A stretch of DNA of 64,000 nt from a bacterium (GTDB lineage Bacteria; Margulisbacteria; Marinamargulisbacteria; SXXA01): positions 3,104 through 67,103 of the forward strand of contig RHAI01000001.1 in NCBI GenBank assembly GCA_010028705.1. The letters are read 5' to 3'. How positions within the stretch are numbered: position 1 is the stretch's first letter; each line of letters starts with the position of its first letter. The notes beneath the pieces were generated by a model that was given only the letters and a program-made list of their open reading frames with translations, had not been told where the DNA came from and did not search any database. Position numbers and translations under genes: made by a program. Below are positions 30,817 to 59,601 of this stretch, in pieces.

Positions 30817-31350
30817 ATGAACAAATACGCCCCATCCCGCATTCAAGCTTGGCTTAGTTCACTATTATTCGGAGTTATCGCGATGACCCACCCTAATTTC
30901 CATAAACCCTCAGATGCCGAATTACGCAAACAATTAACTCCAGAACAATATCAAGTCACTCAACACGACGCTACCGAGCGTCCGTTCGCCAATAAATATT
31001 GGAATACCACCACCCCCGGGCTCTATGTTGATGTCGTGTCTGGAGAACCCCTATTTACATCCTTGGATAAATTCGATTCCGGGTGTGGGTGGCCCAGTTT
31101 TTCAAAACCGATCGGTCCTCTGACCGAAAAATCCGATCATAAAATTGGCTATGAGCGAACGGAGGTGCGGAGTAAAGGGGCCGATTCTCACCTCGGACAT
31201 GTATTTCCAGATGGCCCCAAGGATCGTGGGGGGCTTCGCTATTGCATCAACTCCGCCGCACTGCGATTCATCCCGGTGAGTGATCTTGAAGCCGAAGGAT
31301 ATGGCCGTTTCAAGTCATTATTCACCTCAGCCAACTCCCGACCCAAGTGA
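30817..31350 (+). CDS. msrB: Peptide-methionine (R)-S-oxide reductase MsrB
   Basis: The MsrB core reads [18 protein letters not shown]...GCGWPSF...[10 protein letters not shown]. The first ~22 aa are hydrophobic, so either a signal peptide is present or the true start is the internal Met at 30883. Confidence 0.85.
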
Positions 31351-32294
31351 CACGCTCCCCGATCATTGCCGTGTCATCGGTCAGTTTTTCCAAAAATGCG
31401 ACGTTACGCTCTGAATTGAGTGCCCAATTTCCAAATTCCCGATTTAATGAATCAGGACGCAATTTATCGACAGACGAATTAATTGCATTTTTTAGTCACG
31501 CGGATGGCATTTTAGTCGGAACCGAGCCAATTAACCGTGAGGTCATTAATGGATCCCCCTCTGTGTCCTGCCTCGCTAAATATGGCGTGGGTCTCGACAA
31601 TGTGGACATCGACTATTGTCGCCAGGCCAATGTTGCCATTGGGTGGACAGGTGGCGTTAATAAATATGCCGTTGCTGAGCTAGTGATCGGATACATGATC
31701 ACCTTATCCCGAAACATGTTTATGAGTGCGAATCAATTGAAGGCAGGGGGGTGGCACAAATTCGGGGGTCGGCAATTATCGGGACTCACCATTGGGATCA
31801 TAGGCCTGGGTCATATCGGTCAAGAATTGGTACGGTTGCTCCAGCCATTTGAGCCCACTATTCTGGCAAACGACATCGCGGATCGCTCGGAATTTGCGAC
31901 AACACACGGCGTTCAGCTCGTGGGATTGAGCACACTGGTATCGCGTTCCGACATCATAACGATACACACCCCATTAACGGCGTTAACTCATCACTTAATT
32001 AACGCCGGGACATTGTCGCTCATGAAGCCAACGGCCATCGTAATCAATACCGCCCGGGGTCCAGTGATTGATCAGGCGGCCCTCACCGAATCCCTCGCGA
32101 ACGGGGTAATTGGTGCGGCAGCGCTCGATGTCTACGCGGTTGAACCAGAAACAGATGCAAGACTATTAGCCCTTCCGAATCTATTCTGCACGCCCCATAT
32201 CGGGGGCAACTCAATCGAGGCGGTGCTCGCAATGGGACGAGAAGCGATTCATCACCTCGTTCAGTTTTTTACAGCACCCAACCTAATGGCATGA
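31347..32294 (+). CDS. D-isomer-specific 2-hydroxyacid dehydrogenase (PGDH/SerA-like)
   Basis: A 315 aa ORF with the NAD-binding motif [12 protein letters not shown] and a catalytic region (ARGPVID...HIGGNS). It overlaps msrB by 4 nt. Confidence 0.75.
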
Positions 32295-32367
32295 CCGCCC
32301 AGTCACGTATTGTAATGGGTGGGGGCCACTCGGGATGGGTACGAATTAATTCGGATAGCAGGATCCT

Positions 32368-34122
32368 ATGAAATTAGCATCGGGCATGCTGATGTGGAGC
32401 GCCATTATTTACACTCAGATGCGCCCAAGTCAGACTCTACCGATCGGGCACCCGAACAATGCCCCACTCCGCCCCATCCAATCGGACGATTCACTTCCAA
32501 CGCGGCGATTGGCCACAACGACCCTCGATGCACCGTCGGGGACCGCCCACTCGATCGATGAACTCAGTCGGACCCTGTTAGAAATCGTCGATATTGGGGT
32601 TCCATTAACCACCCCAATGTGGGGGGGATGGACCCCCGGAACCCAGGCGGCTGTCGACGGGGACATCCAGCAACTCCACCGCCTAAATCGGCTCGACCCC
32701 GCATCACTCAAGGAATCCGATGTGGAGGGATGGACCCCCGCCACTCGCGCGGCGTCTGTCGGGCAGGTTGAATCGATAATGGCTCTCTTTGAGATTGACC
32801 CACTATTGCTTCGGCAGGTGGATAATTTTCTAGCGACGCCCGCCACACGGGCCGCACATTATGGCCAGACAACCATTTTAGAGACATTGCATCGATTGGA
32901 TCCCGAGTTATTATCGCAAATCGACGCCGGAGGTTGGACTCCCGCCACACGAGCCGTCTTCGACAAGCAGCATGGTGTATTAGAAACGCTATTCCGTTTG
33001 AACCGGACGATATTAACACAACCAAACGGCAAAGGGTGGACTCCCGCCACCTTAGCGGTAGCGTTTGATAAAGGAGATATTGTTAACACATTGTATCGAC
33101 TCGACCCCCAAGCGGTGACGTGTAGCGACGCCAATGGATGGACTCCCGCGATGTGGGCGGCCAACGACGGCAAAGTTGCCGGACTGCGACGACTTCATTC
33201 GCTGCACCCCGAAACCATTACTCGGCCAGATTCCTATGGTCGAACCACGGCAACCCGGGCCGCCGCCAATGGGCATTCCCACGTACTTCAGCTACTTTTC
33301 GAACTCGCACCTGAGATAGTTCGACATCCCGACGTGACCGGTTGGTCCGTCGGGACCATCGCGATACGCCACAACCAAGGCGAGATACTCCAGACACTCC
33401 ACGCCCTAGATCCACGCTTATTATCCCAACCCGATGGCCATCAATTCACGCCACTCACGTTTGCAATTCACGAAAAAAAAATGGAAATGATTACTACCCT
33501 CTACCAGATTAACCCGTCACTGATTGATACGCTAACCCCCGACGGATTGACACCCGTGTCCTTCGATTCACTGCTGGAGTTAATGAACACGACCCATCGA
33601 GGTTGGGGTATCGATCCATGGCTGGCGATATCGCCACTCCTATTAATTAGTCAGGTTACGGTTGGAGTTCTGTCACTGATTTTCATCATCCAGCGTCTCG
33701 GCCGAGGGGGAATCCCAAACGATGCTCAGACGAATCTGTCCTCCGAACCAATCGGCAACGAGTTAGTCGCGGATCAAAGTCATCAGCTGATGACCCAACT
33801 TGCCGAACTTTCGGATAAGGAGTCACTTAATGTCGGCCACGGAATGGTCGCCCGTCGAAACGGAAGCCTCTATGAACTCGACGATGCCACGGGCACCTAT
33901 CAACCCGTAGCGTGCCTTATCTCGCACGACGAACTCACGCTACACACCGCGGTCTTAATTCATCGACCAACGCATCCCAATCACCGGCTCCATCTCGTGA
34001 CGGCCGAAAATCCGTATCAATTTGCTAAGTGTGCGCTCTGTAAGGAACCCACGGCAACTGAGAACTGGCTCCATTACTATTGGGCCACCCGGATCCAAAA
34101 TTCGATTGCCGCGCCCGACTAA
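32368..34122 (+). CDS. Membrane protein with ~10 tandem 34-residue ankyrin-like 'GWTPATxAA' repeats, one TM helix and a conserved Cys/His C-terminal domain (paralog A)
   Basis: A 584 aa ORF. The repeats follow DxxGWTPATRAAxxGxxxxLxxLxxLDPxLLxQxD. A TM helix (ISPLLLISQVTVGVLSLIFII) is followed by a C-terminal domain with HGMVARRNGSLY and CALCKEPTATENWLHYYWATR. This domain is shared with the gene at 37891. Confidence 0.6.
   Translation: MKLASGMLMWSAIIYTQMRPSQTLPIGHPNNAPLRPIQSDDSLPTRRLATTTLDAPSGTAHSIDELSRTLLEIVDIGVPLTTPMWGGWTPGTQAAVDGDIQQLHRLNRLDPASLKESDVEGWTPATRAASVGQVESIMALFEIDPLLLRQVDNFLATPATRAAHYGQTTILETLHRLDPELLSQIDAGGWTPATRAVFDKQHGVLETLFRLNRTILTQPNGKGWTPATLAVAFDKGDIVNTLYRLDPQAVTCSDANGWTPAMWAANDGKVAGLRRLHSLHPETITRPDSYGRTTATRAAANGHSHVLQLLFELAPEIVRHPDVTGWSVGTIAIRHNQGEILQTLHALDPRLLSQPDGHQFTPLTFAIHEKKMEMITTLYQINPSLIDTLTPDGLTPVSFDSLLELMNTTHRGWGIDPWLAISPLLLISQVTVGVLSLIFIIQRLGRGGIPNDAQTNLSSEPIGNELVADQSHQLMTQLAELSDKESLNVGHGMVARRNGSLYELDDATGTYQPVACLISHDELTLHTAVLIHRPTHPNHRLHLVTAENPYQFAKCALCKEPTATENWLHYYWATRIQNSIAAPD
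32650..33630 (+). repeat. In-frame tandem repeats (~102 bp period) encoding the GWTPAT ankyrin-like modules of paralog A
   Basis: The motif recurs at ggatggactcccgccac about every 102 nt. Antisense ORFs with VAGV.P peptides in the ORF track are artefacts of this periodicity. Boundaries are approximate. Confidence 0.6.
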
Positions 34123-34199
34123 CACTCAACGATACGCCAGGGGAATACGACTTCATCCATTGGCCCATCGGAAGTCTGCAGCCCCGTTAGTGCCCCACC

Positions 34200-36761
34200 C
34201 TACACCGTAATCCGCCCCTCACGATAGTCTACAGTGATTGAGGATTGGGGGATTGTTCCCGCCAACAATTTGGCCGCTAACGGATTTTCGATGGTTTGGA
34301 CGATTAATCGCTTCATTGGTCGAGCCCCAAATTCTGGATCAAAACCTGCCAGTGCGAGATACTGAATGGCCGACGGTGTCACGTGAAACGAATACCCTCT
34401 GGCGGCCAACCGATCGGACAAATGCGCCAATTGAATATGTACTATTTTTTCCAAATCGTCGTTGGAAAGCGGATGAAACGACACGATATCATCAATTCGA
34501 TTTAAAAATTCGGGTCGAAACACTTGTTTGAGCGCTGACATCAACTGATGATCGCGTCGATCGGGATCCGACTCGGCGTGTAGAATATGACTGCCAATGT
34601 TCGACGTCATAATTACGATAGTATGTTTAAAATCGACGGTGCGACCCTGACTATCGGTTAAGCGACCGTCGTCCAATACCTGAAGTAATAGGTTGATGAC
34701 ATCCGGATGCGCCTTTTCGATTTCGTCTAGCAACACCACACTGTAAGGACGACGTCGGACAGCCTCGGATAGCTGACCTCCCTCGCCATAGCCCACATAC
34801 CCCGGCGGCGCACCAATTAATCGAGATACCGAATGCTTTTCCATGTATTCCGACATATCGATTCGCACCAGGTGTTTATCGTTATCAAACAAAAACTCAG
34901 CTAAGGCTTTCGCCGTTTCAGTTTTCCCAACGCCGGTCGGGCCAAGAAACAAAAAACTTCCCATCGGTCGATTGGGATCCGCTAATCCCGATCGCGACCG
35001 TCGAATGGCATGGGCAACACGATCAATCGCCTCCAACTGCCCCACCACTCGCTGCGTGAGTCGCTCCTCCGCATGAATCAATTTTTCCTTCTCGGTTTCA
35101 ATCAGTCGAGAGACCGGAATGCCGGTCCATTTGGCTACGATCTCCGCGATATCTTCGTCTTCAACTTGTTCGTTTAACATTTTCTGTGTCGACTGAACCT
35201 CCGCCAGCTGCTGCGTCAACGAATCAATCATTTGGGTCAACTCGGGGACTAACTTAAATCGAATTTCAGATACTTTCTCGTAATTTCCCAATCGCTCTTC
35301 CATTTGTTCTGTGTATCGCGCATCTTCCAACTGTTTTTTGGCCGTTCGAATCGATTGAATCACCGCTTTTTCGCTCATCCAATGGGCCGTCAGCGTCGCG
35401 GATTTTTCTTTTAATTCGGCCAACTGTGCATCAATTTTAGCCAAGGTACTGTTTCCGAGCTCGTCGCCGTCCCGTTTCACCGCCTGACGTTCAATTTCAA
35501 GTTGGAGTATTTTACGGGTAACTTCGTCAATTTCTTGAGGCATGGAATCAATTTCGATGCGCAATTTGGAGGCGGCTTCATCGAGCAAATCAATGGCTTT
35601 GTCTGGCAAAAAACGGTCGCTAATGTACCGATTTGAAAGATTGGCCGCCGCAATCACCGCGTCGTCATGTATTTTTACCCCGTGATGGATTTCGTATTTT
35701 TCCTTAAGCCCTCGCAAAATTGCGATGGTATCTTCAACACTCGGCTCTCCCACATAGGTCTGTTGAAACCGACGTTCCAGGGCCGGGTCTTTTTCAATGT
35801 GGGACCGATATTCATCCAGGGTCGTAGCACCGATGCAACGGAGCTCACCCCGAGCCAGTGCCGGTTTAAGCATATTGGCCGCATCAACGGCCCCCTCAGC
35901 CCCCCCCGCGCCGACCAAGGTGTGGAGTTCATCAATAAACAAGATGACGTCATCTTTCCCCTGCACTTCCGTCAGCAATCCCTTAAGCCGCTCTTCAAAC
36001 TCGCCCCGATATTTGGCACCTGCAATCAGCGCACCCATGTCCAACGACAGGACCCGCTTGCCACGTAATAGTTCGGGAATATCGCCCGACACAATGCGTT
36101 GGGCCAACCCTTCGACAATCGCCGTTTTACCCACTCCCGGTTCTCCGATAAGTACAGGATTGTTTTTTGTGCGGCGGCATAACACTTGAATAACGCGACG
36201 AATCTCATCATCACGGCCAATCACAGGATCCAACTTTCCCTGAGCGGCCCGGTCGACCAAATCAATGGTAAATTTTTTAGACGCATTGAACCGGGCATCG
36301 GGATCCGGACCATCGACTCGCATCGACCCGCGAATCTGCGTTAAGGATTCTTTAATCGCCCGGGGAGAGGCCCCCGCATCCGACAATAACCGCCCCGCCG
36401 CAGACGGATGATCGGCAACCGCCACCAGCAAATGATCGCAACTGACATATTCATCACCCATCGACGACGCGGTGGTTTTAGCCAGTTGCATGATGGTTGT
36501 GAGATGAGAAGATAGGTAAGGAGTATGGCCCCCAGTGACTTTGGGTAATCGACTAATCGCGTCCATCGACAATTTTAAGACGTAATCGGGTGACACCCCA
36601 GTTTTCTGGACCAATTCCGTTGCTAATGACGAACGATCCGATACCAATCCGGCCAATAAATGCACATCCGTTAGTTCTTGATTGGTATGGGCGATGGCCA
36701 ATTCCTGAGCGTTTTGAATGGCTTCCTGCGCCTTAATCGTCAGTTTATCGTTACCGATCAT
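34200..36761 (-). CDS. clpB: ATP-dependent chaperone/disaggregase ClpB
   Basis: An 853 aa ORF with a Clp N-domain, two AAA+ modules ([15 protein letters not shown]; [15 protein letters not shown]) and a long middle-domain coiled coil. Confidence 0.9.
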
Positions 36762-37111
36762 GGATACACCTCATGTTTAAATTGAAAAGTCGCTAAAACG
36801 ACAGGAGTTACGCGGCACATTGGGTGCCAATCAAAACGGCCAAAAATCGTTCCATAATACTACACTTGGAGGGTGATGCGATATGAATCTGTCGGCATTC
36901 AGTACATCGTGAATCGCCCGTCGTATCGTTCGGGATATCGGTAGGCGTTAGGGCCTTCTGACGAATCGCCGAGTTGTATGTCCGCATACCGTCCTCGACA
37001 ACCGCCCGTACGACTCCGGTCGTCGGTGTCACCCTGCCGTGCGATTGACTCCGTCAATCCGCCCCTACGTGTAATCGTGCACTGGGGATCGCGATGCGCG
37101 GCACCCGACCA

Positions 37112-37675
37112 TTACTTCGGACCCCATTTTTTTTGAATAAATCCGGCGCGACCGGACCCTACTTTGTATCGCTCATAATGGATGGGTTGTTTGCGGTAAT
37201 ACTGTTGATGATAATCTTCAGCTGGATAAAATGTCGCGGCCGGTTTAATGGTAACAACAATCGGTTTTTCAAATTTTCGACTGGCCGCCAACGCTTCTTT
37301 CGACGCAGCCGCCGCGAGACGTTGCTCAGGGCTGTGATAAAAAATGACAGGTCGATATTGAGGGCCTAAATCGGCAAACTGCCCATACTGATCCGTCGGA
37401 TCAACATTTTTCCAGTACACATCTAATAACGCGTTATAGCTTACCCTCGACGGGTCATATTCAACCTGAATTACTTCATAATGTCCGGTTCGACCGGTAC
37501 TGACTTGGTCGTATGTTGGTCGGATTACACTACCGCCCATATACCCTACCGTTGTGTTTACAACGCCTGGAATATGATCATACGGTGACTGCATACACCA
37601 AAAACATCCCCCCGCAAACGTCGCAATCAATAAGGCTTTCACGTACCCATTTAATCGGATGTTCTCGTGAAACAC
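37112..37675 (-). CDS. msrA: Peptide-methionine (S)-S-oxide reductase MsrA
   Basis: A 187 aa ORF with the MsrA active-site motif GGCFWCMQ near the N-terminus, a conserved GYxGG and recycling-Cys context. Confidence 0.85.
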   Translation of the reverse strand: MFHENIRLNGYVKALLIATFAGGCFWCMQSPYDHIPGVVNTTVGYMGGSVIRPTYDQVSTGRTGHYEVIQVEYDPSRVSYNALLDVYWKNVDPTDQYGQFADLGPQYRPVIFYHSPEQRLAAAASKEALAASRKFEKPIVVTIKPAATFYPAEDYHQQYYRKQPIHYERYKVGSGRAGFIQKKWGPK

Positions 37676-37890
37676 AATTTTAAATTCAATAACAACCGAT
37701 CAGGGGAGAACCTCGTGCCGCCCCCGATTACGACTTGTGACGTGACCGATCGCCGATCATTCCACTGCCTTGGCATTTTAATTGAAATTTTTTCGCCCAA
37801 AATTTCGATAATAATTTGAGCCGATTGAATGGAGTGGCCGAATCCCATCGCCACTAGACTTTATTCCATTCGCCCAGGAGTCTGTCCCCA

Positions 37891-40185
37891 ATGAATATAT
37901 TTAACGGCGCCAACCCGATGATTACCCAAGTAGCTTACAATACAACATCCCCCCGACGGACGGATAATTCACTCCCCGTATGCCCGATTCCTACCCCAGT
38001 TAGTCGCCATCAAGACCCCATCGCCATGGACTCATGGACACAACTCGAGCAACTTACTCGATCAAATATTCGCTGGTCACTCCCTCCGGATCAATCCGGC
38101 AATACCGCCCGGCCGATTTTTCCAACACTTGCGCCTGATTTAATAAGTCAATTAGTTAACGGCGACACAACAGCTGCCACAATGGCCGCAAAATACGGCC
38201 GATCCGATGATCTCATCAGGCTGTATCACCTCGACCCCAGAGGCTTAAATCAGACTGACAAAAAGGGATTGACTCCCGCCACAATGGCCGCCAAATCGGG
38301 CCAATCAGATGTACTTAAAACAATTCATCTACTTGACCCTAAATTGCTCACCCAATTTGATAATTACGGCCGAACTCCCGCCACAATAGCCGCCATCTCA
38401 GGACAATCAGACGTACTTAAAATGCTCTACTCAATAAATCCGAAACTACTCACCCAATTTGATAAAAACGGTTGGACTCCGGCTACATTAGCCGCCAAAT
38501 TAGGCCAATCGGAAATAGTTCTCACACTTCACCAACTCAATCCCAATTTGCTCAAACAACACAATAAGAATGGAAAAAACGCCGCGACAGAAGCCGCTTA
38601 CGAAGGAAATTTGGATGTCATACAGACGATTTCCAAAATCGACTCAAATTTGTTACGAATCTTTGACAAAAAAGGGCGGACTCCCGCCACAATGGCGGCT
38701 CAAGAAGGTCATCCAGACATCCTAATTGCACTTCATCACCTGGATCCGGATTTACTAAAACAATCGACCCAATTTGGGCATACCCCAGCAACCACGGCTG
38801 CCAGAAAAGGAAAATTAGGCATACTCAATACTCTAAACCAACTCGATAGTCGTCTGTTACATCAATACAACAAGCACGGAGATACGCCAGCAACCACGGC
38901 CGCCGGAGAAGGAAAAGCAAACGTCATCACGACCCTCCACACACTCAATCCCCAATTGATCACCCAATGTAATAAACACGGCTGGACGCCAGCCACCCTT
39001 GCTGCGAAAACAGGAAACGCCAACGTCATTAAAATCATCCACCAACTCAATCCTGAACAATTATCTCAAGTCGACAGTAACGGGCGAAACGCCGCATCAA
39101 CAGCTAGTGAGGCCGTTAGAGATGACGTATTAAATGCACTCCACACACTCAATCCCCAATTGCTCTCACAGTGGGATAATCACGGCGCAACGTCTGCGAC
39201 AAGAGCTGCCGAATTGGGGCGTTCATTCGCAATTATCACCCTGCATAAACTGAATCCAGAATACCTGACCCAATTCGACAAAAATGGCCGAACACCTGCC
39301 ACTGTCGCCGCCAAATCAAAAAAATTAGGCATCATCAAAACTCTCTACCGACTTAACAAAGACTTGCTCAACCAATCGGATGATAGCGGACATAATCCAG
39401 CCACTGTCGCCGCCAAATCAGGCCAATTAGACGTCATCTCCACTATTTACGAGCTCAATCCAGAAGTACTCATACAATCGGATCGTAGCGGCCATACACC
39501 AGCCACTATCGCCGCGACATTAGGCAACTTAGACGTCCTCATCACACTCCACAACCTCGATCCTGCGTTACTCACCCAACTCGACAACAACGGCTGGACT
39601 CCCGCCACGAAAGCCGCGTCCAAAGGCAACTTAGACGTCCTCAAAACTCTGTATCAACTGGATCCCAAACTATTGCTACAACTCTGGCTCCTGATCGGGA
39701 GCATAAGCGTTCTGGGGATCGCCACCCTCGGAGGGATTTGGTATTTATTACCGTTGGAACAACTCCACCCCAATGCACTCGGTCAAGCTATTCTTGAACC
39801 ACCTATCCCCATCATGGCGCCCCAGGTCGCCGAAGTTCCAATGATCGGACTCGAGGTGGTCACCGCCCAACGCAATCAACTGATGGCTCAACTGAGTCAA
39901 CTTGGGGAGAATGATCACCTCGATGTCGGCCATGGGATGGTCGCCCGTCGAGACGGAAGCCTTTATGATCAGAGCGAAAGTAGCATGCTTAATCTCTTAC
40001 AACGACCTGATGCTCGATACCGCGACCCTACTTCATCGACCACGGAATCTCCATCAACGCCTCCATCTTGTGACGTCAGAATATCCGTATCAATGGGCGA
40101 CGTGTGCGCTCTGTCAGGAACCCACGGCACCAGAGACCTGGCTCCATTACTATTGGGCCACTCGGAACATGGCCCCGCCAAGTGA
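37891..40185 (+). CDS. Paralog B of the GWTPAT ankyrin-like repeat membrane protein (~15 repeats); the C-terminal conserved domain is frameshifted
   Basis: A 764 aa ORF with 34-aa repeats (e.g. DKKGLTPATMAAKSGQSDVLKTIHLLDPKLLTQF), a TM helix (LWLLIGSISVLGIATLGGIWYLL) and then HGMVARRDGSLY. After that the annotated frame encodes a non-conserved tail. The conserved C-terminus CALCQEPTAPETWLHYYWATR is encoded in another frame (39902-40192). Confidence 0.55.
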   Translation: MNIFNGANPMITQVAYNTTSPRRTDNSLPVCPIPTPVSRHQDPIAMDSWTQLEQLTRSNIRWSLPPDQSGNTARPIFPTLAPDLISQLVNGDTTAATMAAKYGRSDDLIRLYHLDPRGLNQTDKKGLTPATMAAKSGQSDVLKTIHLLDPKLLTQFDNYGRTPATIAAISGQSDVLKMLYSINPKLLTQFDKNGWTPATLAAKLGQSEIVLTLHQLNPNLLKQHNKNGKNAATEAAYEGNLDVIQTISKIDSNLLRIFDKKGRTPATMAAQEGHPDILIALHHLDPDLLKQSTQFGHTPATTAARKGKLGILNTLNQLDSRLLHQYNKHGDTPATTAAGEGKANVITTLHTLNPQLITQCNKHGWTPATLAAKTGNANVIKIIHQLNPEQLSQVDSNGRNAASTASEAVRDDVLNALHTLNPQLLSQWDNHGATSATRAAELGRSFAIITLHKLNPEYLTQFDKNGRTPATVAAKSKKLGIIKTLYRLNKDLLNQSDDSGHNPATVAAKSGQLDVISTIYELNPEVLIQSDRSGHTPATIAATLGNLDVLITLHNLDPALLTQLDNNGWTPATKAASKGNLDVLKTLYQLDPKLLLQLWLLIGSISVLGIATLGGIWYLLPLEQLHPNALGQAILEPPIPIMAPQVAEVPMIGLEVVTAQRNQLMAQLSQLGENDHLDVGHGMVARRDGSLYDQSESSMLNLLQRPDARYRDPTSSTTESPSTPPSCDVRISVSMGDVCALSGTHGTRDLAPLLLGHSEHGPAK
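38180..39660 (+). repeat. In-frame tandem ~102-bp repeats encoding the ankyrin-like modules of paralog B
   Basis: Adjacent units are near-identical, e.g. ...caatcagatgtacttaaaacaattcat... / ...caatcagacgtacttaaaatgctctac..., and ctcacccaatttgataa recurs. Boundaries are approximate. Confidence 0.6.
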
Positions 40186-40192
40186 AACTTAA
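39902..40192 (+). pseudogene. Out-of-frame segment encoding the conserved C-terminal domain of paralog B (frameshift relative to 37891-40185)
   Basis: The 96-aa frame-2 ORF (...VACLISYNDLMLDTATLLHRPRNLHQRLHLVTSEYPYQWATCALCQEPTAPETWLHYYWATR...) aligns residue-for-residue with the C-terminus of the 32368 protein. A DNA alignment shows that paralog B has 20 nt fewer than paralog A just after ggaagcctttatga (~39970-39985). Confidence 0.6.
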
Positions 40193-40436
40193 ACTAGAAC
40201 GGGTCATCACGACGCCCCCCACCCGTGTGGGACAAAGGCTCACGTACCGTCACGACGTCGGCATCAGTTTCCCTTAACCTATGATTTACTGCTAAAATCC
40301 CTCCACTTTTGAAAATTAAGCCATCTCATCCTGATCGACCAGCTGATTCGGAACCACCACCGATTCCAGGTCAGCGACTCAGTCCATCCCATAGTCCTAC
40401 ACTCTTTATCCATCGAAAGGACCCCGCCCAGACCCT

Positions 40437-41753
40437 ATGATCGCATCTCTAGTTCATATTGATTCTCTGTCGATCGTCATCATGATTCTGGTGGGATTTA
40501 TCGGATCCATTGTCCTGGCGTTCGCCACACGTTACCTAAGATACGACCGGCATTACGCCCGATTTCTAGCGTCACTGAGCGGTCTACTGGTGTCTGTTAT
40601 CATCTTAAGCGTTTCCGATCATGTTGTGCTTTTTGGCATAACGTGGACACTGGTTAATGGAATACTGATTCGGCTAATGACCCATTTTCGCCAGTGGCCA
40701 CAGGCCATCGAATCGGGACGCCAGGCCGTTTATCGCTTGGGAATAGGCACGGCGGCACTATATTTGGGGCTCATCCTAGTGACACACTCGGCACACAGCG
40801 TTCGAATTTCGACCATCATCCACACGGTGCCGGTCACCCCAATGTCGACCATTGGGATCGGATGTATTGTCATTGCTGCATTGGCACAATCCGCTATTAT
40901 TCCGTTTCATAAATGGCTACTGAGCTCCCTTAATTCCCCAACCCCCGTTTCGGCACTCATGCACGCCGGAATCATTAACGGCGGGGGGGTTCTACTGACA
41001 CGATTTGGGCCGTTGGTCATTCAACATCCCACGATTCTTCATTTTTTGGTCATCATCGGGCTACTGACCGCCGCGTTTGGAACGGCATTTAAATTAGTGC
41101 AATCGGACATCAAGCGCATGTTAGCGTGTTCCACGATGGGGCAAATGGGGTTCATGATACTCCAATGTGGACTGGGATTATTTCCCGCTGCTATTTCGCA
41201 CATGGTGTGGCACGGCATGTTTAAAGCCTATTTTTTCCTGGATTCTCCGAGCGCCGCGCAGTACCCCAAACTTAGCAAGCCCGAAACCCCGCATCCGTTG
41301 TCAGCCATCGCGTCAATTGTGGGTGGTATGGCGGCGGCATCCATTGCCATGATGATACTCCATATTTCAGTGGCCCCGATCAATTCTTCGGTGGTCATCC
41401 CCATTGTTATCGGAATCGCAGGCACCCAAGGAATGATGACATTTATTCAACGAAACGGTGTATCTCTGGCCCCGATTGGGTTCGGACTAGCAGTGGTGAT
41501 GGGCGCCATGTACGGATTCAGTGTCCGGATCGTCGAAACGACGCTAAGCCCCCTTCACCTGTTGGCACCCCAACCCTTTCATTGGGTTCATGGCATGGCC
41601 GCCAGCGTATTAATTGGATTATGGGCAAGTATCGCCTTGAGCCCATTGATTACGAAACGAAAATTACCCGGGCTATACGTTTGGATACTGAACCTCAGTC
41701 AGCCTCACCCCGCCACGATTACCTCCGACAGAAACATGTACCGCTATGATTAA
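40437..41753 (+). CDS. dabB: Proton-conducting membrane transporter subunit (NuoL/MrpA-like); DabB-like partner of a DUF2309 protein
   Basis: A 438 aa polytopic membrane protein with ~12 hydrophobic helices and a NuoL-family-like core (HAGIINGGGVLLTRFGPL; MGQMGFMILQCGLG). It lies immediately upstream of a DUF2309-type gene and overlaps it by 8 nt. Confidence 0.6.
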   Translation: MIASLVHIDSLSIVIMILVGFIGSIVLAFATRYLRYDRHYARFLASLSGLLVSVIILSVSDHVVLFGITWTLVNGILIRLMTHFRQWPQAIESGRQAVYRLGIGTAALYLGLILVTHSAHSVRISTIIHTVPVTPMSTIGIGCIVIAALAQSAIIPFHKWLLSSLNSPTPVSALMHAGIINGGGVLLTRFGPLVIQHPTILHFLVIIGLLTAAFGTAFKLVQSDIKRMLACSTMGQMGFMILQCGLGLFPAAISHMVWHGMFKAYFFLDSPSAAQYPKLSKPETPHPLSAIASIVGGMAAASIAMMILHISVAPINSSVVIPIVIGIAGTQGMMTFIQRNGVSLAPIGFGLAVVMGAMYGFSVRIVETTLSPLHLLAPQPFHWVHGMAASVLIGLWASIALSPLITKRKLPGLYVWILNLSQPHPATITSDRNMYRYD

Positions 41754-43932
41754 CTCCTCGGCCACTATTCGTGATATCATCGAGGCCGCTTGGCGGCCCA
41801 TCTCACCGTTTTGGCCACTGCAATCGATTGTATCGGTCAACCCACTTCAGGGTTTGGAATATTTGCCATTTGATCAGGCCATCGTTCACGCCCAGCATTT
41901 ATGGGGAAGGACCCCATTACCTGACACGATCTCCACTGCGAATCGGATCTCGATAAAATGGTGTCAATCGCTCATGGATTTGGGCCAGGCTCGAATTGGA
42001 ATTGTATCCAAACGGCGCACACTATTTGACACCTGGAAATCACTGGCCGTATGGGATACGGAACTCACCCGACCATGCCCCACATTACGATCATGGTTAG
42101 ACAAAGATCCCGTTGATTTGATCGCGCATCACATCAATGAACTGGGGATAACCCTCGATCAGGGAGCCGAGTTACTGACACTCACGCTCACATCGCTACC
42201 GGGATGGGCATCGCATGTTCGGTATCTCGACCAATGGGCATCGGGTCACCCGACGGATATCCAAACCGATTTCCTCGCAATTCGGTTAAGTATTATTCGG
42301 GCCGTTGGTCAGGACTCCGAAATCGTGCGGTGGGTCACCACGCCGCCAGTGCCGAATCCCGATTTTATAAATTATCAGGCCATCCGCGACGCCGAATCTG
42401 ACTATATTCCATCGCTAATCCAACGCCTGGAATCGGCGATAAACCACCCATCGCCCAGTGAATCACCCGACCTACAAATGGCATTCTGTATTGATGTTCG
42501 CTCAGAACCTATTCGCCGAGCGATCGAGTCAGCGGGGCCGTATCAGACGTTTGGGATCGCCGGTTTTTTTAATATTCCGATTCAAATTTCCGACCATTTG
42601 TCACTCGAGACCCACCCGTCATGCCCAGTCATAATGCGCCCGGAATATCGCATCCACGATCGACGCCCCGCATCAACCTGGCTGGCCCATAGTTTAAAAT
42701 CATGGCATATGATTCAACGCGGAATTCGGTATTTGTATCGAACACTCAAATATACATTTTCCGCTCCCTTTGCATTAGTCGAAATAGTCGGTGGAAGTTT
42801 AGGGATCGCTATGGCGATACGAACATTATTTCCCGCCGTGGCCCACATGGCGACCCCTCAAAAAATACACGCTACCCCCCGATTGCCATCAGTATTGGAT
42901 GCATTAACAGCGATTCCGTTAGAGGATCAAATTCGCTACACCGAAGGTGCGTTGAGGACGATGGGATTAACGGACAACTTTGCCCCAATCATACTTATTT
43001 GCGGCCATGGCAGTTCGACTCAGAACAATGCCTTCGCCACAGCCCTCGATTGTGGCGCATGTGGCGGGCAACCCGGCGACCGAAATGCCCGTGTTCTTGC
43101 ACAACTCCTCAATTCCCCCGATGTACGACAGGCGCTTCATTCACGGGATATCTCGATCCCTGACAGCACATTATTTATGGCGGCACTGCACAACACAACA
43201 ACTGATCACATCTCATTATTCGACGACAGCCTCCTACCTCCAAACGGAATCCAGCAGGCTATTCTTGAACGATTTAAGTCCCATTTACCCGCCATACAAT
43301 CCATATGCGCCCATCGACGACTGACTCAACTGGGGCACCCCACCGACGTCCGCCTTGCAACACGTTTGGCGATTAAACTCAGTGTGGACTGGGCGCAAAT
43401 CAGACCGGAATGGGGGTTATCCGGAAATGCCTCTATTATTGTCGGCGATCGTGAGCTCACGCGAGATCTCGACCTTGGCGGCCGGTCATTTTTGCAGTCC
43501 TACAATTGGCACTCTGACCTCGATGGCCGCATATTAGTGAGCCTTCTGGATTCGGCTGTTGTTGTCGCCCACTGGATCAACAGTCAGTACCTTTTTTCAA
43601 CCATCAATCCAACCGCCTTTGGAAGTGGGAGTAAAGTGACCCACAACATCACAGGAAAACACAGCGTCATGCAAGGCAACGCCAGTGACATTATGACTGG
43701 ATTGCCAATGCAATCGTTATATCGGCGACCGGGAGAACCGTACCATGCGCCCGTCCGACTAACGATCGGAATTATGGCGCCCATCGATCGAGTCATCGGG
43801 TCGATAAAACAATCCCCGACGCCGCTTCAATTGATTATTAATCAATGGGCCCATTTGGTGGTGATTGATCCGATCACCCGGCGAGTCAGTCGGATTACCC
43901 ACACCGAACTATTGGCGCACTGTTCCGCCTAG
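41746..43932 (+). CDS. dabA: DUF2309-family protein, DabA-like (putative inorganic-carbon accumulation complex subunit)
   Basis: A 728 aa ORF with the motif FCIDVRSEP. A His and a Cys lie 15 residues apart (ICGHGSSTQNNAFATALDCGACGG). This matches the Cys-x-Asp ... His ... Cys beta-carbonic-anhydrase-like site described for DabA. Confidence 0.65.
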   Translation: MINSSATIRDIIEAAWRPISPFWPLQSIVSVNPLQGLEYLPFDQAIVHAQHLWGRTPLPDTISTANRISIKWCQSLMDLGQARIGIVSKRRTLFDTWKSLAVWDTELTRPCPTLRSWLDKDPVDLIAHHINELGITLDQGAELLTLTLTSLPGWASHVRYLDQWASGHPTDIQTDFLAIRLSIIRAVGQDSEIVRWVTTPPVPNPDFINYQAIRDAESDYIPSLIQRLESAINHPSPSESPDLQMAFCIDVRSEPIRRAIESAGPYQTFGIAGFFNIPIQISDHLSLETHPSCPVIMRPEYRIHDRRPASTWLAHSLKSWHMIQRGIRYLYRTLKYTFSAPFALVEIVGGSLGIAMAIRTLFPAVAHMATPQKIHATPRLPSVLDALTAIPLEDQIRYTEGALRTMGLTDNFAPIILICGHGSSTQNNAFATALDCGACGGQPGDRNARVLAQLLNSPDVRQALHSRDISIPDSTLFMAALHNTTTDHISLFDDSLLPPNGIQQAILERFKSHLPAIQSICAHRRLTQLGHPTDVRLATRLAIKLSVDWAQIRPEWGLSGNASIIVGDRELTRDLDLGGRSFLQSYNWHSDLDGRILVSLLDSAVVVAHWINSQYLFSTINPTAFGSGSKVTHNITGKHSVMQGNASDIMTGLPMQSLYRRPGEPYHAPVRLTIGIMAPIDRVIGSIKQSPTPLQLIINQWAHLVVIDPITRRVSRITHTELLAHCSA

Positions 43933-44436
43933 AGACGGAGCGACGGATACGCGAATATTTTCGGCCAATTGGGTGAGCGCCGTGATATCGCCCATTGGTC
44001 CACTCCCCGAACAAATCCACCCCTCGTATCGTTCAAACCAAAACTGTTTGCCACTGAGTTGCTGGCGCCAACTGCCATTTTCTAAATGTTCAGTCCCATG
44101 CATGGGCACCAATTTAATGTGAGCGTGATCAACCCCGGTACCCTCCATAATCAATCCAACGCGGCCCACGTCGTCAAAATAATTTTCAAGAATACCCGCG
44201 ACCGTTTTCGAGGCCAAAATAAACCGTTGGAGCACCTCATCGGGCATCTTCAACACATCGCTACCAAAATGGATTTTGGGGACAACACACGAAAATCCTT
44301 CGGTATTCGGATCGATTGCCAACCACGCCATAAAGTCGTCGTCACTCCAAAAAATTCCTGGAGTGTTTATTTTCCCAGAAATAATGTCACAAAAAATGCA
44401 TCGATTATCAGCGGTGTGCGACGGGTAATTAGCCAT
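43909..44436 (-). CDS. HIT-family (histidine triad) nucleotide hydrolase/transferase
   Basis: Start set at MANYPSHT. The longer ORF to 44532 would run through tRNA-Tyr. The protein has a Cys-rich N-terminus (CIFCDII) and the histidine triad DHAHIKLVPMH. Confidence 0.75.
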   Translation of the reverse strand: MANYPSHTADNRCIFCDIISGKINTPGIFWSDDDFMAWLAIDPNTEGFSCVVPKIHFGSDVLKMPDEVLQRFILASKTVAGILENYFDDVGRVGLIMEGTGVDHAHIKLVPMHGTEHLENGSWRQQLSGKQFWFERYEGWICSGSGPMGDITALTQLAENIRVSVAPSLGGTVRQ

Positions 44437-44446
44437 AAATAGTTGG

Positions 44447-44530
44447 TGGAGGGAGCTGGATTTGAACCAACGTAGAGCTAAGCTCGGCAGATTTACAGTC
44501 TGCTGCGATTGACCACTCCGCCATCCCTCC
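44447..44530 (-). tRNA. tRNA-Tyr (anticodon GTA), long variable arm
   Basis: The reverse complement reads GGAGGGATGGCGGAGTGGTCAATCGCAGCAGACTGTAAATCTGCCGAGCTTAGCTCTACGTTGGTTCAAATCCAGCTCCCTCCA. The anticodon loop is CTGTAAA and the T-arm is GGTTCAAATCC. Confidence 0.85.
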
Positions 44531-44621
44531 AAAGGAAAGCTTTGAAAAAGCAGAGTATTCTAGGATATAGCTTGCGAGAAACCTATGTCAAATCAAGCCC
44601 ATTCACGCAAAGCGAATTGGG

Positions 44622-53755: not shown

Positions 53756-53832
<77 letters not shown>

Positions 53833-53834
53833 AG

Positions 53835-54326: not shown

Positions 54327-54345
54327 ACAATTACCTTTACAGTAT

Positions 54346-54693
54346 TTACTTTGATGCTAATTGAACAACAGACCTGAAAGTTTCAGGATTGGAAATCGCC
54401 AATTCGGACAACATCTTTCGATTTATCTCAATATTATTACGTTTCAAACCACCAATAAATCGCGAATATGAGATACCCTCAGCAGTAACCGCGGCGTTTA
54501 TTCGGGAAATCCACAATGCCCGAAAATCACCTTTTTTGTCACGACGATCGACGTACATGTGGCGCATCGCTTGAAGAACTGCCTGGTGGGCCTGACGATA
54601 TAATTTTGAAATACCACCGCGGTATCCTTTTGCAAACTTGAGAACTTTTTTTCGTCGATTTCGGGCAACATTACCTCGTTTAACTCGAACCAT
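54346..54693 (-). CDS. rplT: 50S ribosomal protein L20
   Basis: [27 protein letters not shown]... is canonical bL20. Confidence 0.95.
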
Positions 54694-54914: not shown

Positions 54915-54942
54915 AAAGTACTGACCTTTAACCTTTCAAATT

Positions 54943-55796: not shown

Positions 55797-57140
55797 ATGT
55801 TGCATGAACTTTGGGAAAAAATATTGATCAACCTCAATCAAACATTATCGGGTCCGGGATATCAAACATTCGTCTCATCATCTATTCCAAAATCATTCGA
55901 AGACAATATCTTAACCATTACTGTTGGAAATCGCTTCTCGATGGATTGGATTAAGGAAAAGTGTGAACAATCTGTTCGTGACACACTTCAACAAAACGGA
56001 TTCTACCCTGTAATCGTTATGTACGATATTGATTCTACCCCGGTCACCAATGAATCCAGTCAAATGGATTTACTTGAGGTCACCACCCCGCCCCCTGTAA
56101 TTACAAATCCAAATGGGATGTTTAATCCCAAATATAATTTTGACAACTTTATTGTCGGCCATAACAACCGCTTTGCACATGCGGCATCGGAAGCAGTCTC
56201 CAAGGCACCCGCCAAAGCGTACAACCCCCTCTTTATTTATGGGTCTGTTGGACTAGGTAAAACACATTTGCTCCACGCGATTGGCAACGAAATTCAGAAA
56301 AAACACCCAAAACTCAAACTATTTATGGTGTCATCAGAAAAATTTACGAACGAACTTATTAATTCGATCAAAGATAAAAAAGTCGAAAACTTTAGATCGA
56401 AATACCGAAACGTTGATGTGTTACTCGTCGACGATATCCAATTTTTATCTGGGAAGGAACAAACTCAGGAGGAATTTTTTCACACATTTAACGAACTTCA
56501 CAGCAACAACAAGCAAATAATATTGACCTCAGACCGACCACCAAAAGAAATTCCAACACTTGAAATTCGACTGAGAACTCGCTTTGAATGGGGATTAATC
56601 GCCGACATTCAACCTCCTGAATTTGAAACTAGAATTGCTATTCTTAGAAAAAAAATTGAGTTATATAACATTCGGATTTCCGACGAGATCCTTCATTTTA
56701 TTGCAACTCAAATTCCGACAAACGTCCGCGAAATGGAAGGATGCCTGACTAAAATTTCGGCATATGCGTCACTTCTAAATACGGAAATTACCCTTTCAAT
56801 TGCGAGTAACGTCATTCGGGATATGATTGGCATTAAAAACGATAAACCGCTCACAATCACTCACATCAAACGGAAAGTATGTGATTACTTTAACGTATCA
56901 AACGTCGATCTATGCTCCAAAGGCCGAACAAGAGAACTGACGTACGCGCGGCAAATTGCGATGTATTTAGCCAGGGAATTAACGAACGTGTCACTGCCAA
57001 AAATTGGCGAAAATTTTGGAGATCGTGACCATAGTACCGTCATGCATGCATGTGACAAAGTGAAAACGTTGTTAGTGAATGACCCTGAAACAAAAAGTAT
57101 CATCAATCTGCTAATATCAAATATCAAAAACGACGAATAA
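55797..57140 (+). CDS. dnaA: Chromosomal replication initiator protein DnaA
   Basis: A 447 aa ORF with the AAA+ Walker A GSVGLGKTHLLHAIGNE, Walker B LLVDDIQF and a C-terminal DnaA-box-binding HTH (...YARQIAMYLARELTNVSLPKIGENFGDRDHSTVMHA). Confidence 0.95.
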   Translation: MLHELWEKILINLNQTLSGPGYQTFVSSSIPKSFEDNILTITVGNRFSMDWIKEKCEQSVRDTLQQNGFYPVIVMYDIDSTPVTNESSQMDLLEVTTPPPVITNPNGMFNPKYNFDNFIVGHNNRFAHAASEAVSKAPAKAYNPLFIYGSVGLGKTHLLHAIGNEIQKKHPKLKLFMVSSEKFTNELINSIKDKKVENFRSKYRNVDVLLVDDIQFLSGKEQTQEEFFHTFNELHSNNKQIILTSDRPPKEIPTLEIRLRTRFEWGLIADIQPPEFETRIAILRKKIELYNIRISDEILHFIATQIPTNVREMEGCLTKISAYASLLNTEITLSIASNVIRDMIGIKNDKPLTITHIKRKVCDYFNVSNVDLCSKGRTRELTYARQIAMYLARELTNVSLPKIGENFGDRDHSTVMHACDKVKTLLVNDPETKSIINLLISNIKNDE

Positions 57141-57355: not shown

Positions 57356-57385
57356 ATGAATCATCAAGAATTAAGCCGAGGAAAC

Positions 57386-58528
57386 GCCATGCAATTTTCA
57401 TGTTCTGCATCTCAGTTACAAAAAGCCGTCGGAATCGTAGAGCGAGCTATTTCTCAACGGACTACACTGGCCGTTTTGGAGAATCTTTATTTAGAGCTCA
57501 GTGGAAATCGATTAAAACTTCGAGGTAACGACCTAGAAATTGGAATCGAAACTAGCCTGTTCGTTGAGTCTGCTGGGGTGGATGGTTCGGTGTTAGTTCG
57601 GGCGAAGACTTTTAGTAGTATTCTGTCTAAAATTCAGGCCGACACCCTGAATGTTCGAGTCGATGTGAACTCAAAAATTGTGATAGTTGCGAATAAGGTT
57701 GATTTCGAAATTTTGTGTACCCCGGTTGAAGATTATCCGATTTTCCCCGCCGTGGAGTCTGGTATTTCATTCACTATGTCGGCGTCCGTGATACAGGATT
57801 TGATTCGGCATACAATTTTTGCCGTTAGCTTTGATGAAACAAAGCAGTTTCTGAATGGGATTTTCGTCAAAGTTGAGAGTGGCAGCATCAATTTCGTTGC
57901 GACGGATGGCTATCGCTTGGCGTTAAAACGTCATACTCTCGACCAAAGCAGCGTCGGGGATTTTTCATTAATCGTTCCTCATAAAGCAGTCAATGAATTA
58001 CTTAAAATTTTGGGCACTTTGGGGGATGACGCGCCAATTAAATTAAATGTTTCTGAGTCTCAAATTGCCTTTGAGTCCGAACGGTTTTTATTAGTGTCGC
58101 GTGTAATTAAGGGGCAATTTCCCGATTACCGGCAAGTGATGCCAAAACACTCTGATAATTTATTTTCAGTGTCTCGGCATTCACTGTTAAACGCGTGTGA
58201 TCGAGCCACGATTATTGCCGCAACCTCAAATAATGTTGTTCGATTAAATTTCAGCGAAACCAGCGTATTGATCAAAGCTAACGCCGCGAGTTTAGGTGAC
58301 TTTAAAGAAGAAATTGATGTTTCGCGGTTGAGTGGTGCGGGTGAAGTGAAAATCGCATTTAACGTTAAACTGGTATTAGATGGGATTCGCGGAATTAGCT
58401 CGGATGATATTCGATTGGAATTCAATCAGGGAGTCTCGCCGTGCGTGGTTCGTTCGGCGGCGGATGAGGATTATGTATACATTGTGATGCCGATACGTAC
58501 AAATGACTTTCAGGAGGAAACTGCCTAG
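57386..58528 (+). CDS. dnaN: DNA polymerase III beta sliding clamp
   Basis: Start set at MQFSCSASQLQKAV, which aligns with the MKFT... N-terminus of DnaN homologs. The ORF track starts 10 codons earlier. The three-domain clamp length is ~380 aa. Confidence 0.9.
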   Translation, partial: AMQFSCSASQLQKAVGIVERAISQRTTLAVLENLYLELSGNRLKLRGNDLEIGIETSLFVESAGVDGSVLVRAKTFSSILSKIQADTLNVRVDVNSKIVIVANKVDFEILCTPVEDYPIFPAVESGISFTMSASVIQDLIRHTIFAVSFDETKQFLNGIFVKVESGSINFVATDGYRLALKRHTLDQSSVGDFSLIVPHKAVNELLKILGTLGDDAPIKLNVSESQIAFESERFLLVSRVIKGQFPDYRQVMPKHSDNLFSVSRHSLLNACDRATIIAATSNNVVRLNFSETSVLIKANAASLGDFKEEIDVSRLSGAGEVKIAFNVKLVLDGIRGISSDDIRLEFNQGVSPCVVRSAADEDYVYIVMPIRTNDFQEETA

Positions 58529-58533: not shown

Positions 58534-59601
58534 ATGCTGCGTCGGATCTGGGTTAAAAATTTTAGAAATTTATCCGAGCAGCTTTTAGAGTTAGATCCTA
58601 AATTCACAGTTATTCGTGGGGAAAACAATCAGGGAAAAACAAATTTATTAGAGGCCATTTATTTTGGTATTTCAGGGGGGACGATTATGGATGAGTCGTT
58701 ACATGATCTCCCCAGTTTTTCCTCGGCTGATTCGGCCGTTGTGGGGGTTGATTTCGAGTCGTCTACTTCCCATCGGCTGTACCGAGAGGTATCGAGGCGG
58801 GGGGCAAAGTTTCCAGTTCTGGATGGTGAATCGGTTCGTCAAGCGAGGGACCAGGTACCTCATGGCGCTGCCTACTGGTCGGCTGATCTGATTCGATCAA
58901 TTCAGGACTCAGCCGACGAGCGCCGAAAGATGGTTGATCGAATAGTGGTTAAAAAAGATCGTAAACTCGAGTTTTTGTACAAGTCGTATCAAAGGGTTCT
59001 GTCACAACGAAACGCGTGTTTACGAACCGGTAATCGGTCTCTTATTCGATTTTATAATGATCGGTTTATTGAGCTATCGATGGCCGTAACTTCGGCGAGA
59101 GAAAGAATGGTCGTCGAGTTATGTGATCGGGTAGGTCCCTATATATCTGACATTTTAGGGGACCGGCTACTGACGGTGAGTGGGGTGATCCAAATGAAGG
59201 GAATTGATCGTTTGCAAGACGTTGATTCATTCAAGCACGCGCTAGAACATCGGCTTGAAAAAGATTTCGCGTTGGGGTTTACGTCCGTTGGGGCCCATCG
59301 AGATGATATTGAATTTTTTATAGACGGTCAGTCGGTGGTGCGTTATTTGTCACGAGGCGTTAATCGTATTTTTGCATTGTTATTAAATTTGTCTGGTCTT
59401 GAATCGATGGTTTCCAAGGTGCCGATGATTTTATTAATTGATGACGCCTTCTGTGAGGTGTCCAGTCGGTTAAAGGATCGCGTACTACCGTTTTTATTGG
59501 GGCGGTTTCAGATCGTTTACGTTTCGACGAATACTGACGAATTTCGTGATTTTTCGGGGAAACGATTTATAATGGAATTGGGTGTTTGTACTGATGGATA
59601 A
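58534..59601 (+). CDS. recF: DNA replication and repair protein RecF
   Basis: A 355 aa ORF: MLRRIWVKNFRNLSEQ...GENNQGKTNLLEAIYF, with Walker A and a C-terminal SMC-like signature region. Confidence 0.9.
   Translation: MLRRIWVKNFRNLSEQLLELDPKFTVIRGENNQGKTNLLEAIYFGISGGTIMDESLHDLPSFSSADSAVVGVDFESSTSHRLYREVSRRGAKFPVLDGESVRQARDQVPHGAAYWSADLIRSIQDSADERRKMVDRIVVKKDRKLEFLYKSYQRVLSQRNACLRTGNRSLIRFYNDRFIELSMAVTSARERMVVELCDRVGPYISDILGDRLLTVSGVIQMKGIDRLQDVDSFKHALEHRLEKDFALGFTSVGAHRDDIEFFIDGQSVVRYLSRGVNRIFALLLNLSGLESMVSKVPMILLIDDAFCEVSSRLKDRVLPFLLGRFQIVYVSTNTDEFRDFSGKRFIMELGVCTDG

Follow-up and report, generated by a model that had tools for sequence, protein, structure and literature searches.

Paralogous bacterial ankyrin-repeat proteins with a 34-residue unit, a single predicted transmembrane segment and an orphan Cys/His tail domain

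What kind of protein is encoded by two related genes, here called g1 and g2, that lie on either side of clpB and msrA in a 64-kb stretch of bacterial DNA (part of contig RHAI01000001.1; this whole stretch is referred to as the window), and on which side of the membrane do their repeats lie? A first-pass annotation, made from the letters alone, had described the two as paralogs that share a layout of N-terminus, tandem repeats of 34 amino acids (aa), one transmembrane helix and a common tail. Open reading frames (ORFs), repeat register, hydropathy and alignments all support this layout, and a single hydrophobic segment follows the repeats in each gene on the Kyte-Doolittle scale. We tentatively favor the reading that g1, g2 and a third paralog from a sister strain (g2') are bitopic membrane proteins of a lineage-restricted, rapidly diversifying family, in which an exported, variable ankyrin ectodomain would be joined to a conserved cytoplasmic Cys/His tail.

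In the mechanism that we propose, a Sec signal peptide would export an N-terminal solenoid of 34-residue ankyrin repeats, each unit carrying a short extra helix (D/N-P-x-L-L), while a single C-terminal transmembrane helix would anchor the protein in the cytoplasmic membrane and the ~115-aa Cys/His tail, possibly metal-binding, would remain in the cytoplasm. The array may serve to bind an extracytoplasmic protein ligand (periplasmic or at the surface), and the tail may couple this binding to a cytoplasmic partner. The array itself would grow, shrink and diverge as repeats, and likewise tandem gene copies, recombine with one another. The parts of the two window proteins are as follows.

32368..34122, plus strand: g1, an intact ORF of 584 aa (ORF list)
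32368..32616, plus strand: non-repetitive N-terminus of g1 (aa 1-83), which starts MKLASGMLMWSAIIYTQ and is marginally signal-peptide-like
32617..33636, plus strand: g1 array of ten 34-residue ankyrin repeats (aa 84-423), from the register print and Pfam Ank_2 (9.6e-20)
33616..33702, plus strand: predicted single transmembrane segment of g1 (aa 417-445, core PLLLISQVTVGVLSLIFII), maximum 2.35 in a 19-aa Kyte-Doolittle window
33769..34119, plus strand: orphan C-terminal tail domain of g1 (aa 468-584), from alignments, without a family or PDB match
Start of g2 frame A, plus strand: N-terminus of g2 (aa 1-88), without a signal peptide
38155-39684, plus strand: g2 array of 15 ankyrin repeats (aa 89-598), from the register print and Pfam Ank_2 (1.2e-49)
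39658-39759, plus strand: predicted transmembrane segment of g2, from hydropathy

The g1 product is exactly NDC82063.1 ("ankyrin repeat domain-containing protein [bacterium]"; equal to P0001 and its cluster members), and an identical g1 is carried by contig L001 from another assembly. The final three g1 repeat units are degenerate. As for the N-termini, which had been put at ~100 aa, they are indeed non-repetitive (~90 aa), but their homology is not demonstrable: those of g1, g2 and g2' are not alignable to one another, tblastn returning only self-matches, and BLASTP gave no match between the N-termini of g2 and g2' at E<=100.

Ankyrin repeats with a 34-residue unit

Both arrays follow a strict 34-residue period, with 10 units in g1 and 15 in g2 in which G-W-T-P-A-T stays in column. 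BLOSUM autocorrelation is positive only at lag 34 (+0.29 for g1, +1.17 for g2), and the next-best lags fall below -0.5. Register and autocorrelation thus bear out the period of 34 and the replacement of TPLH by TPAT that had been claimed from inspection. The term "ankyrin-like", under which the repeats were first described, proved too cautious: judged by family profile and predicted fold, they are genuine ankyrin repeats. Pfam Ank_2, with a cut-off of 27.3 bits, matches g1 at 71.4 bits, g2 at 167.3 bits and g2' at 441.6 bits (E-values 9.6e-20, 1.2e-49 and 3e-135). The AlphaFold2 prediction that had been suggested for the 34-residue unit was made with seven g2 units and returned an ankyrin fold (pLDDT 95.9, pTM 0.90), in which each modeled unit has the pattern helix 8 / helix 10 / helix 5 / loop. 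A Foldseek search of the PDB has only ankyrin proteins among its best 50 matches, and the predicted model superposes unit by unit on the seven repeats of AnkB R8-14 with a TM-score of 0.71-0.73.

Compared with canonical ankyrin (PF12796, PF13637, PF00023; AnkB/AnkG, PDB 5y4e and 7xce), the g1 and g2 repeats are alike in hidden Markov model match, in the solenoid (TM-score 0.7) and at unit positions 1-21, which agree with the ANK consensus (xxG.TPxxxAAxxGxxxx[LV]xxL). They differ in having 34 instead of 33 residues, T-P-A-T instead of TPLH, and a distinct third helix: past helix 2, the ANK stretch LLxxGAxxN is replaced by LxxL(D/N)PxLLxQ, which forms a five-residue helix in the model, and it is at this short helix that the model places the additional residue. 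To the question whether these are ordinary ankyrin repeats the answer is therefore divided, since Pfam Ank membership holds but the canonical 33-residue TPLH unit was not found; a length of 34 residues is shared by the units of g1, those of g2 and 22 of the 24 complete units of g2', and the other two g2' units have 33 residues, with one residue missing at the unit end, at the junction to the next unit. Neither the length nor the TPAT motif is unique, because the Durusdinium protein P0008 contains units that are 34 residues long and read G.TPAH.AA..GH...L..LH.LVP.TLS..D, and P0007 carries TPAT.AA units. As a natural scaffold variant, a 34-residue unit with an extra helical turn may interest repeat-protein engineers.

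Two other families with a 34-residue repeat were considered and rejected. TPR repeats found no support, as no TPR family matched at E<=1 in Pfam and the fold matches ANK only. TAL effector (AvrBs3) repeats share the 34-residue period and a loose "TP...LET...L.P.L.Q" resemblance, and the NCBIfam AvrBs3 profile (NF041308) gives a weak match to g1 (32368-34119, aa 162-387) of 28.4 bits (E=3.7e-7) against a cut-off of 1000 bits. However, comparison by eye gives a 3-residue difference in motif spacing, and the top 50 fold matches contain only ankyrin and no TAL protein. The AvrBs3 match is a periodicity artefact that apparently arises from the 34-residue period and a "LET..RL.P.L.Q"-like stretch.

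The tail domain and its orientation in the membrane

The tail comprises ~115 aa and follows the hydrophobic segment and a Pro-rich linker. Alignments contain in both proteins the motifs that had been attributed to them, HGMVARR(N/D)GSLY and CALC(K/Q)EPTA.E.WLHYYWATR; in g1, the domain consists of a helix QxxQLMxQL, the stretch HGMVARRNGSLY, the Cys/His pattern described below and WLHYYWATR. The identity between g1 and the pieces of g2 is 58-66% (0.62 over a repaired codon alignment), that between g1 and either g2 or g2' is 62-65%, and the tails of g2 and g2' are 91% identical. Repeat units of a single protein are less alike in g1 and g2 (31-46%) and reach 71% in g2', a comparison that speaks for the tail as a real domain. 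The ratio of nonsynonymous to synonymous divergence (dN/dS) between paralog tails is 0.28-0.56 and stays below 1 in every pair, which identifies the tail as a selected coding domain.

No described family had been recognized in this domain at first sight, and none emerged from the searches: the tail found no match in Pfam, in NCBIfam, in PADLOC (models of anti-phage defense proteins) or among PDB sequences, the latter searched with phmmer and with a profile (hmmsearch). It is an orphan domain. PADLOC matches of the full proteins are driven by the repeats only (PDC-M72A, "Ankyrin"). Two candidate families were rejected. The C1/DC1 zinc finger (C1_2, PF03107) reaches 13.5-17.8 bits against a cut-off of 26, and of the 48 profile positions it matches only 1-32, the tail lacking the latter half of the H-C-C...C-C-H-C ligand set. 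A U-box/RING reading (C-IS..EL ... C..C.P) obtained an hhalign probability of 0.1% (E=0.47), a soft negative given that the profiles are weak; neither a U-box/RING match in Pfam at E<=10 nor an hmmsearch match in the PDB was found.

Whether the tail also exists without the repeats, a question raised by the first-pass annotation, could be answered in the affirmative by one distant homolog. When 1.84 billion representative proteins were searched with a profile, the only matches were g1 and P0002 (E=5e-12), a protein of 341 aa that has a transmembrane segment and the tail but no repeats and, like the tail itself, has no match in PADLOC. The representative library missed g2', which is real and present on a JGI contig, and the two tail clusters are therefore a lower bound. 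A word-indexed search with the g1 tail gave no match and missed even g1, which is in the collection, so that this index is evidently incomplete; tail-pattern scans of GTDB genomes and viral contigs found none. P0002 is encoded on a 2-kb contig (L002) beside a partial ORF (L002 1-297, minus strand) that ends in ...SNSITEGFHRKMKLIQ. By eye, this ORF resembles the C-terminus of an ISL3-family transposase, which suggests a bacterial, mobile-element-rich context.

An alignment of three lineages (g1, the composite g2 tail and P0002) has 24 invariant columns, among them C49, H65, H75, C88 and C91, giving the conserved spacing C-x15-H-x9-H-x12-C-x2-C. Three conserved cysteines, an odd number, together with conserved histidines would fit cytoplasmic metal binding better than disulfides. 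The AlphaFold2 model of the tail is poor (pLDDT 48.7), and Foldseek with this model yielded only noise at E>=1, which was discarded.

On which side of the membrane, then, do the two ends lie? All signal-peptide and topology calls were made from hydropathy and inspection. The g2' protein (L083, L088) starts with MKLSSLIIAAVGVASTASA followed by SQ, with a K-containing n-region and A-S-A before the predicted cleavage site, and by inspection this is a clear Sec-type signal peptide. Thus the repeats are probably extracytoplasmic and the tail cytoplasmic. The first-pass annotation had preferred cytoplasmic repeats while allowing for the reverse, and its preference probably has to be turned around. 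Its statement that no signal peptide is present stands for g2 of the window, is borderline for g1 and does not extend to g2'; the best 10-aa N-terminal hydropathy is 2.54 in g2', 1.55 in g1 and 0.58 in g2. In g1 and P0002, the charges on either side of the transmembrane segment weakly favor a tail inside the cytoplasm; in g2 they are neutral.

Several points weigh against an exported array with a cytoplasmic tail. A signal peptide is absent from g2, both in the window and in its L088 allele, and from P0002, and in g1 the N-terminus shows marginal hydrophobicity and no AXA-type cleavage site. A literal reading would give g2 a topology opposite to that of g2' despite tails that are 91% identical, and the topology calls rest on hydropathy and inspection. 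Metal binding and the fold of the tail are guesses, with a tail model at pLDDT 48.7. There is no conserved partner gene nearby, and relatives (ValS 70-73% identical) are without these genes at the locus. Finally, a ratio of nonsynonymous to synonymous differences between strains (pN/pS) near or above 1, as seen in g1, is also expected of a decaying gene.

The N-termini of g1, g2 (in both alleles) and P0002 would be accommodated by the topology first proposed, in which an N-in, cytoplasmic array with a C-terminal anchor and an extracytoplasmic tail, perhaps stabilized by disulfides or metal, would serve as a cytoplasmic scaffold at the membrane; moreover, bacterial ankyrin proteins are for the most part effectors or soluble proteins inside the cell. 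We nevertheless regard this arrangement as unlikely, as g2' places a textbook Sec signal peptide before the same repeats and a nearly identical tail, the flanking charges in g1 and P0002 lean the other way, and the conserved Cys and His residues would better suit metal binding in the cytoplasm.

Bacterial ankyrin proteins with a lineage-specific C-terminal module are already known, some of them Sec-exported, and among ankyrin repeats the present type is a variant. Orphan C-terminal modules are common on such proteins, which tempers the significance of the tail, and Pseudomonas aeruginosa AnkB is also counted among the Sec-exported ankyrin proteins. The Sec-exported Bdellovibrio protein Bd3460 (PMC4686830) and the exported sponge-phage protein ANKp (bioRxiv 10.1101/608950) would resemble g2', whose ankyrin array stands behind a predicted signal peptide and would so act outside the cytoplasm. 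However, known exported ankyrins have ~4-6 repeats, are soluble or N-terminally anchored and lack a C-terminal transmembrane segment or tail domain, whereas g1, g2 and g2' combine 10-25 repeats with a transmembrane segment and a conserved tail, and no cognate enzyme gene adjoins them. If the model that we propose holds, bacteria can present ankyrin solenoids as long as 10-25 repeats in membrane-anchored form outside the cytoplasm and alter them rapidly. The few known exported bacterial ankyrins would then extend from small soluble inhibitors to receptor-like molecules, and the tail would be a new domain family with a compact, testable Cys/His signature.

ZAS-type anti-sigma factors are single-pass signaling proteins with a cytoplasmic zinc-binding module. 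They offer an analogy of mechanism, not of family: both are bitopic and pair an extracytoplasmic sensor with a small cytoplasmic His/Cys domain, but the domain order is opposite (here sensor, transmembrane segment, tail), there is no sequence similarity, and no sigma-factor gene adjoins. A bolder form of the exported-array model, which we consider doubtful, would make the transmembrane segment and tail a new-fold cytoplasmic, possibly zinc-binding, signaling or anchoring domain that, together with the variable array, forms a new class of bacterial single-pass surface receptors, whose ectodomain would diversify between strains like variable surface antigens.

The combination of ankyrin repeats with a lineage-specific C-terminal module is also found in Dot/Icm Ank effectors (T4SS_AnkG, AnkX, AnkF, AnkY), and ankyrin arrays are typically eukaryote-like. 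Conceivably, g1 and g2 could encode eukaryote-directed factors, released or injected, whose array would imitate proteins of the host (for instance to reduce uptake by phagocytic grazers), whose helix would enter the host membrane and whose tail would be a new effector module. In keeping with this, the best ANK matches include P0008, a dinoflagellate protein with the same 34-aa variant, signal-peptide-bearing ANK proteins lower phagocytosis (10.1101/608950), and the genes diversify rapidly. Yet the likeness to Dot/Icm effectors in NCBIfam is weak and limited to the repeats, at 20-57 bits against cut-offs of 500-1400 (the score of 57 bits facing a cut-off of 500), and no secretion-system genes, type IV (T4SS) included, were found in the 64-kb window. 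ANKp proteins are without a transmembrane domain (10.1101/608950), the U-box profile comparison gave the tail a probability of 0.1%, and the biosynthetic genes hisD, aroB, aroQ and those of glycine cleavage are as in a free-living cell. We judge an effector role to be improbable.

The disrupted copy of g2 and variation between strains

The first-pass annotation had treated g2 as one reading frame and thereby overlooked a frameshift: in the window the gene is split within the tail, whose second half is read in the +1 frame. Frame A (37891..40185) encodes 764 aa, the end of which is unrelated to g1, while the +1-frame part is 69% identical to g1 aa 514-575 (tblastn). The features involved are the following.

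37891..39978, plus strand: g2 frame A up to GSLYDQSE (first tail part), 97.6% identical to L088 7285-9691
39978..39979, plus strand: site of the 20-nt deletion, where CCCACTGGCATATTTCAACC is absent relative to the intact allele (blastn of L088 against the window)
39980..40192, plus strand: second tail part of g2 in the +1 frame, VACLISYNDL...CALCQEPTAPETWLHYYWATR...stop, within ORF 39902..40192
37653..37855, plus strand: upstream (5') segment of each tandem paralog, to which L088 3714-3916 and 7285-7487 both align
40093..40214, plus strand: 3' end nearly exactly common to g2 and g2' (~85 nt identical; alignment)

The g2 allele on L088 (JGI contig Ga0214923_10010132) has 20 extra bases, CCCACTGGCATATTTCAACC, between window positions 39978 and 39979 and translates in frame through the site (DQSEPTGIFQPVACLIS); with the 20 nt put back, g2 of the window yields a 773-aa protein. 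Programmed frameshifting was considered and rejected, because the allele with 20 extra nt reads in frame and makes it unnecessary. The gap in the window is either a real pseudogenizing mutation or an assembly error. In an ENA assembly of the same strain, L001, valS is split into genes of 375 and 513 aa, although it is intact in the window; L001 7168-9808 corresponds to window valS 28028-30649, and the two differ by 2 gaps. The L001 assembly therefore contains indel errors, and the 20-nt gap in g2 could likewise be technical.

Public metagenomes contain two haplotypes of the locus that are ~99.5% identical: strain A, which matches the window (L001, L085, L086), and strain B (L083, L084, L087, L088). 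On the strain B contig L088, msrA is followed by the extra, intact paralog g2', which encodes 1100 aa from its ATG and comprises 24 full and 1 partial repeats, a transmembrane segment and a complete tail. A second upstream segment of ~200 nt comes next, and then g2 of the window type (97.6% identical). The strain A contigs break within these shared stretches, as assembly graphs do at repeats: L001 ends at 37817, inside the duplicated upstream segment, and the first positions of L085 and L086, 40160 and 40185, fall within the ~85 nt common to g2 and g2'. We infer that strain A carries g2' too and that the window contig may have skipped it.

The locus thus differs between strains in gene number and in repeat number. 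The paralogs contain 10 (g1), 15 (g2) and ~25 (g2') repeats, and the mean identity among the units of one protein is 0.31, 0.46 and 0.71, respectively; in g2', the DNA forms a 102-nt tandem array of 24.5 copies with 78% identity. This pattern fits a birth-and-death family with one recently expanded or homogenized copy and older, diverging ones. Between strains A and B, g1 has 13 nonsynonymous and 3 synonymous differences (pN/pS 1.44) and g2 has 11.5 and 8.5 (pN/pS 0.43), compared with a pN/pS of 0-0.21 in eight neighboring genes (pooled, 7 nonsynonymous and 35 synonymous). Selection on g1 and g2 would be either diversifying or relaxed.

Relaxation could go further, with g1 and g2 of the window being decaying duplicates of a working g2', g2 a true pseudogene and most of the locus birth-and-death debris. 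The frameshifting deletion, the loss of the signal peptide in g2, the degenerate terminal repeats of g1, the drop in repeat self-identity from g2' through g2 to g1 and the contrast in pN/pS with the neighbors (<=0.21) would all follow. Still, the 584-codon ORF of g1 is unbroken in strain A and in strain B although g1 has diverged deeply from g2, and L088 shows no break in the g2 ORF up to the end of the contig. The dN/dS of the tail is below 1 in all paralog pairs, including a value of 0.45 for the part 3' of the deletion, so any decay would be recent, and the deletion itself could be an artefact, as three other assemblies break in the region. We therefore hold wholesale decay to be quite unlikely and retain the functional, membrane-anchored family as the tentative reading.

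Genomic context

The neighbors named in the first-pass annotation are correct, with clpB and msrA between the two genes and dabBA alongside (ORF list, PF10070).

34200..36761, minus strand: clpB, between g1 and g2
37112..37675, minus strand: msrA, between g1 and g2
40437..41753: dabB, downstream of g2
41746..43932: dabA (PF10070), downstream of g2

ClpB is ~60% identical to homologs from many phyla in a GTDB scan and gives no placement of the organism. ValS is 69-73% identical to that of related metagenome-assembled genomes (MAGs) and 52-56% identical to that of Candidatus Margulisbacteria or Marinamargulisbacteria, which weakly points to Candidatus Margulisbacteria as the nearest among named taxa. 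Relatives keep valS, hisD and a sigma54 activator together and have no ankyrin genes there, which makes the family a recent lineage-specific acquisition or expansion; for the same reason, the clpB/msrA/dabBA neighborhood gives no functional clue. The significance of the family is limited in that it is confined to one uncultured lineage and one remote homolog, in a context that reveals no function. Promoter and terminator scans found fewer sites than in shuffled sequence and are uninformative.

In related MAGs (L091 7176-9879, L092 72-2802; ValS 70%), three tandem phage-tail-collar genes (PF07484) lie directly upstream of valS; the corresponding position in the window is occupied by msrB, a 2-hydroxyacid dehydrogenase gene and g1. 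Genes for oxidative and proteotoxic stress are concentrated around the locus (4537-7738 and 30817-37675), namely ahpF-like, ahpC, a divergent LysR regulator, msrB, msrA and clpB.

The region 53800-59601 of the window is most likely the chromosomal replication origin. It contains dnaA (55797..57140), dnaN (57356..58528) and recF (58534..59601) in a cluster, G+C content drops as low as 0.39 between 54 and 58 kb, and the GC skew reverses near 58 kb; the gene cluster and the skew reversal place the ankyrin locus roughly 16-23 kb from the origin. Directly 3' of recF, a position often occupied by gyrB, lies an ORF of 637 aa (60656-62569) with no Pfam match at E<=0.01.

Several other ORFs of the window deserve mention. 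Three consecutive ORFs (471, 312 and 301 aa) at 1165-4476 on the minus strand have as their only family match an FlgD Ig-like domain in the third. A 608-aa protein (48399-50225) has C-terminal PASTA domains and no other Pfam match at E<=1e-5, and its gene overlaps the preceding, unannotated ORF of 374 aa. A HIT-like ORF of 207 aa (43909-44532, minus strand) overlaps with its 5' end tRNA-Tyr (44444-44530, minus strand), and the gene call in L085, of 140 aa, probably gives the true protein. Finally, the ORF at 12447-13655 on the minus strand encodes a response-regulator receiver fused to a KaiC/RecA-like ATPase (PF00072 and PF06745).

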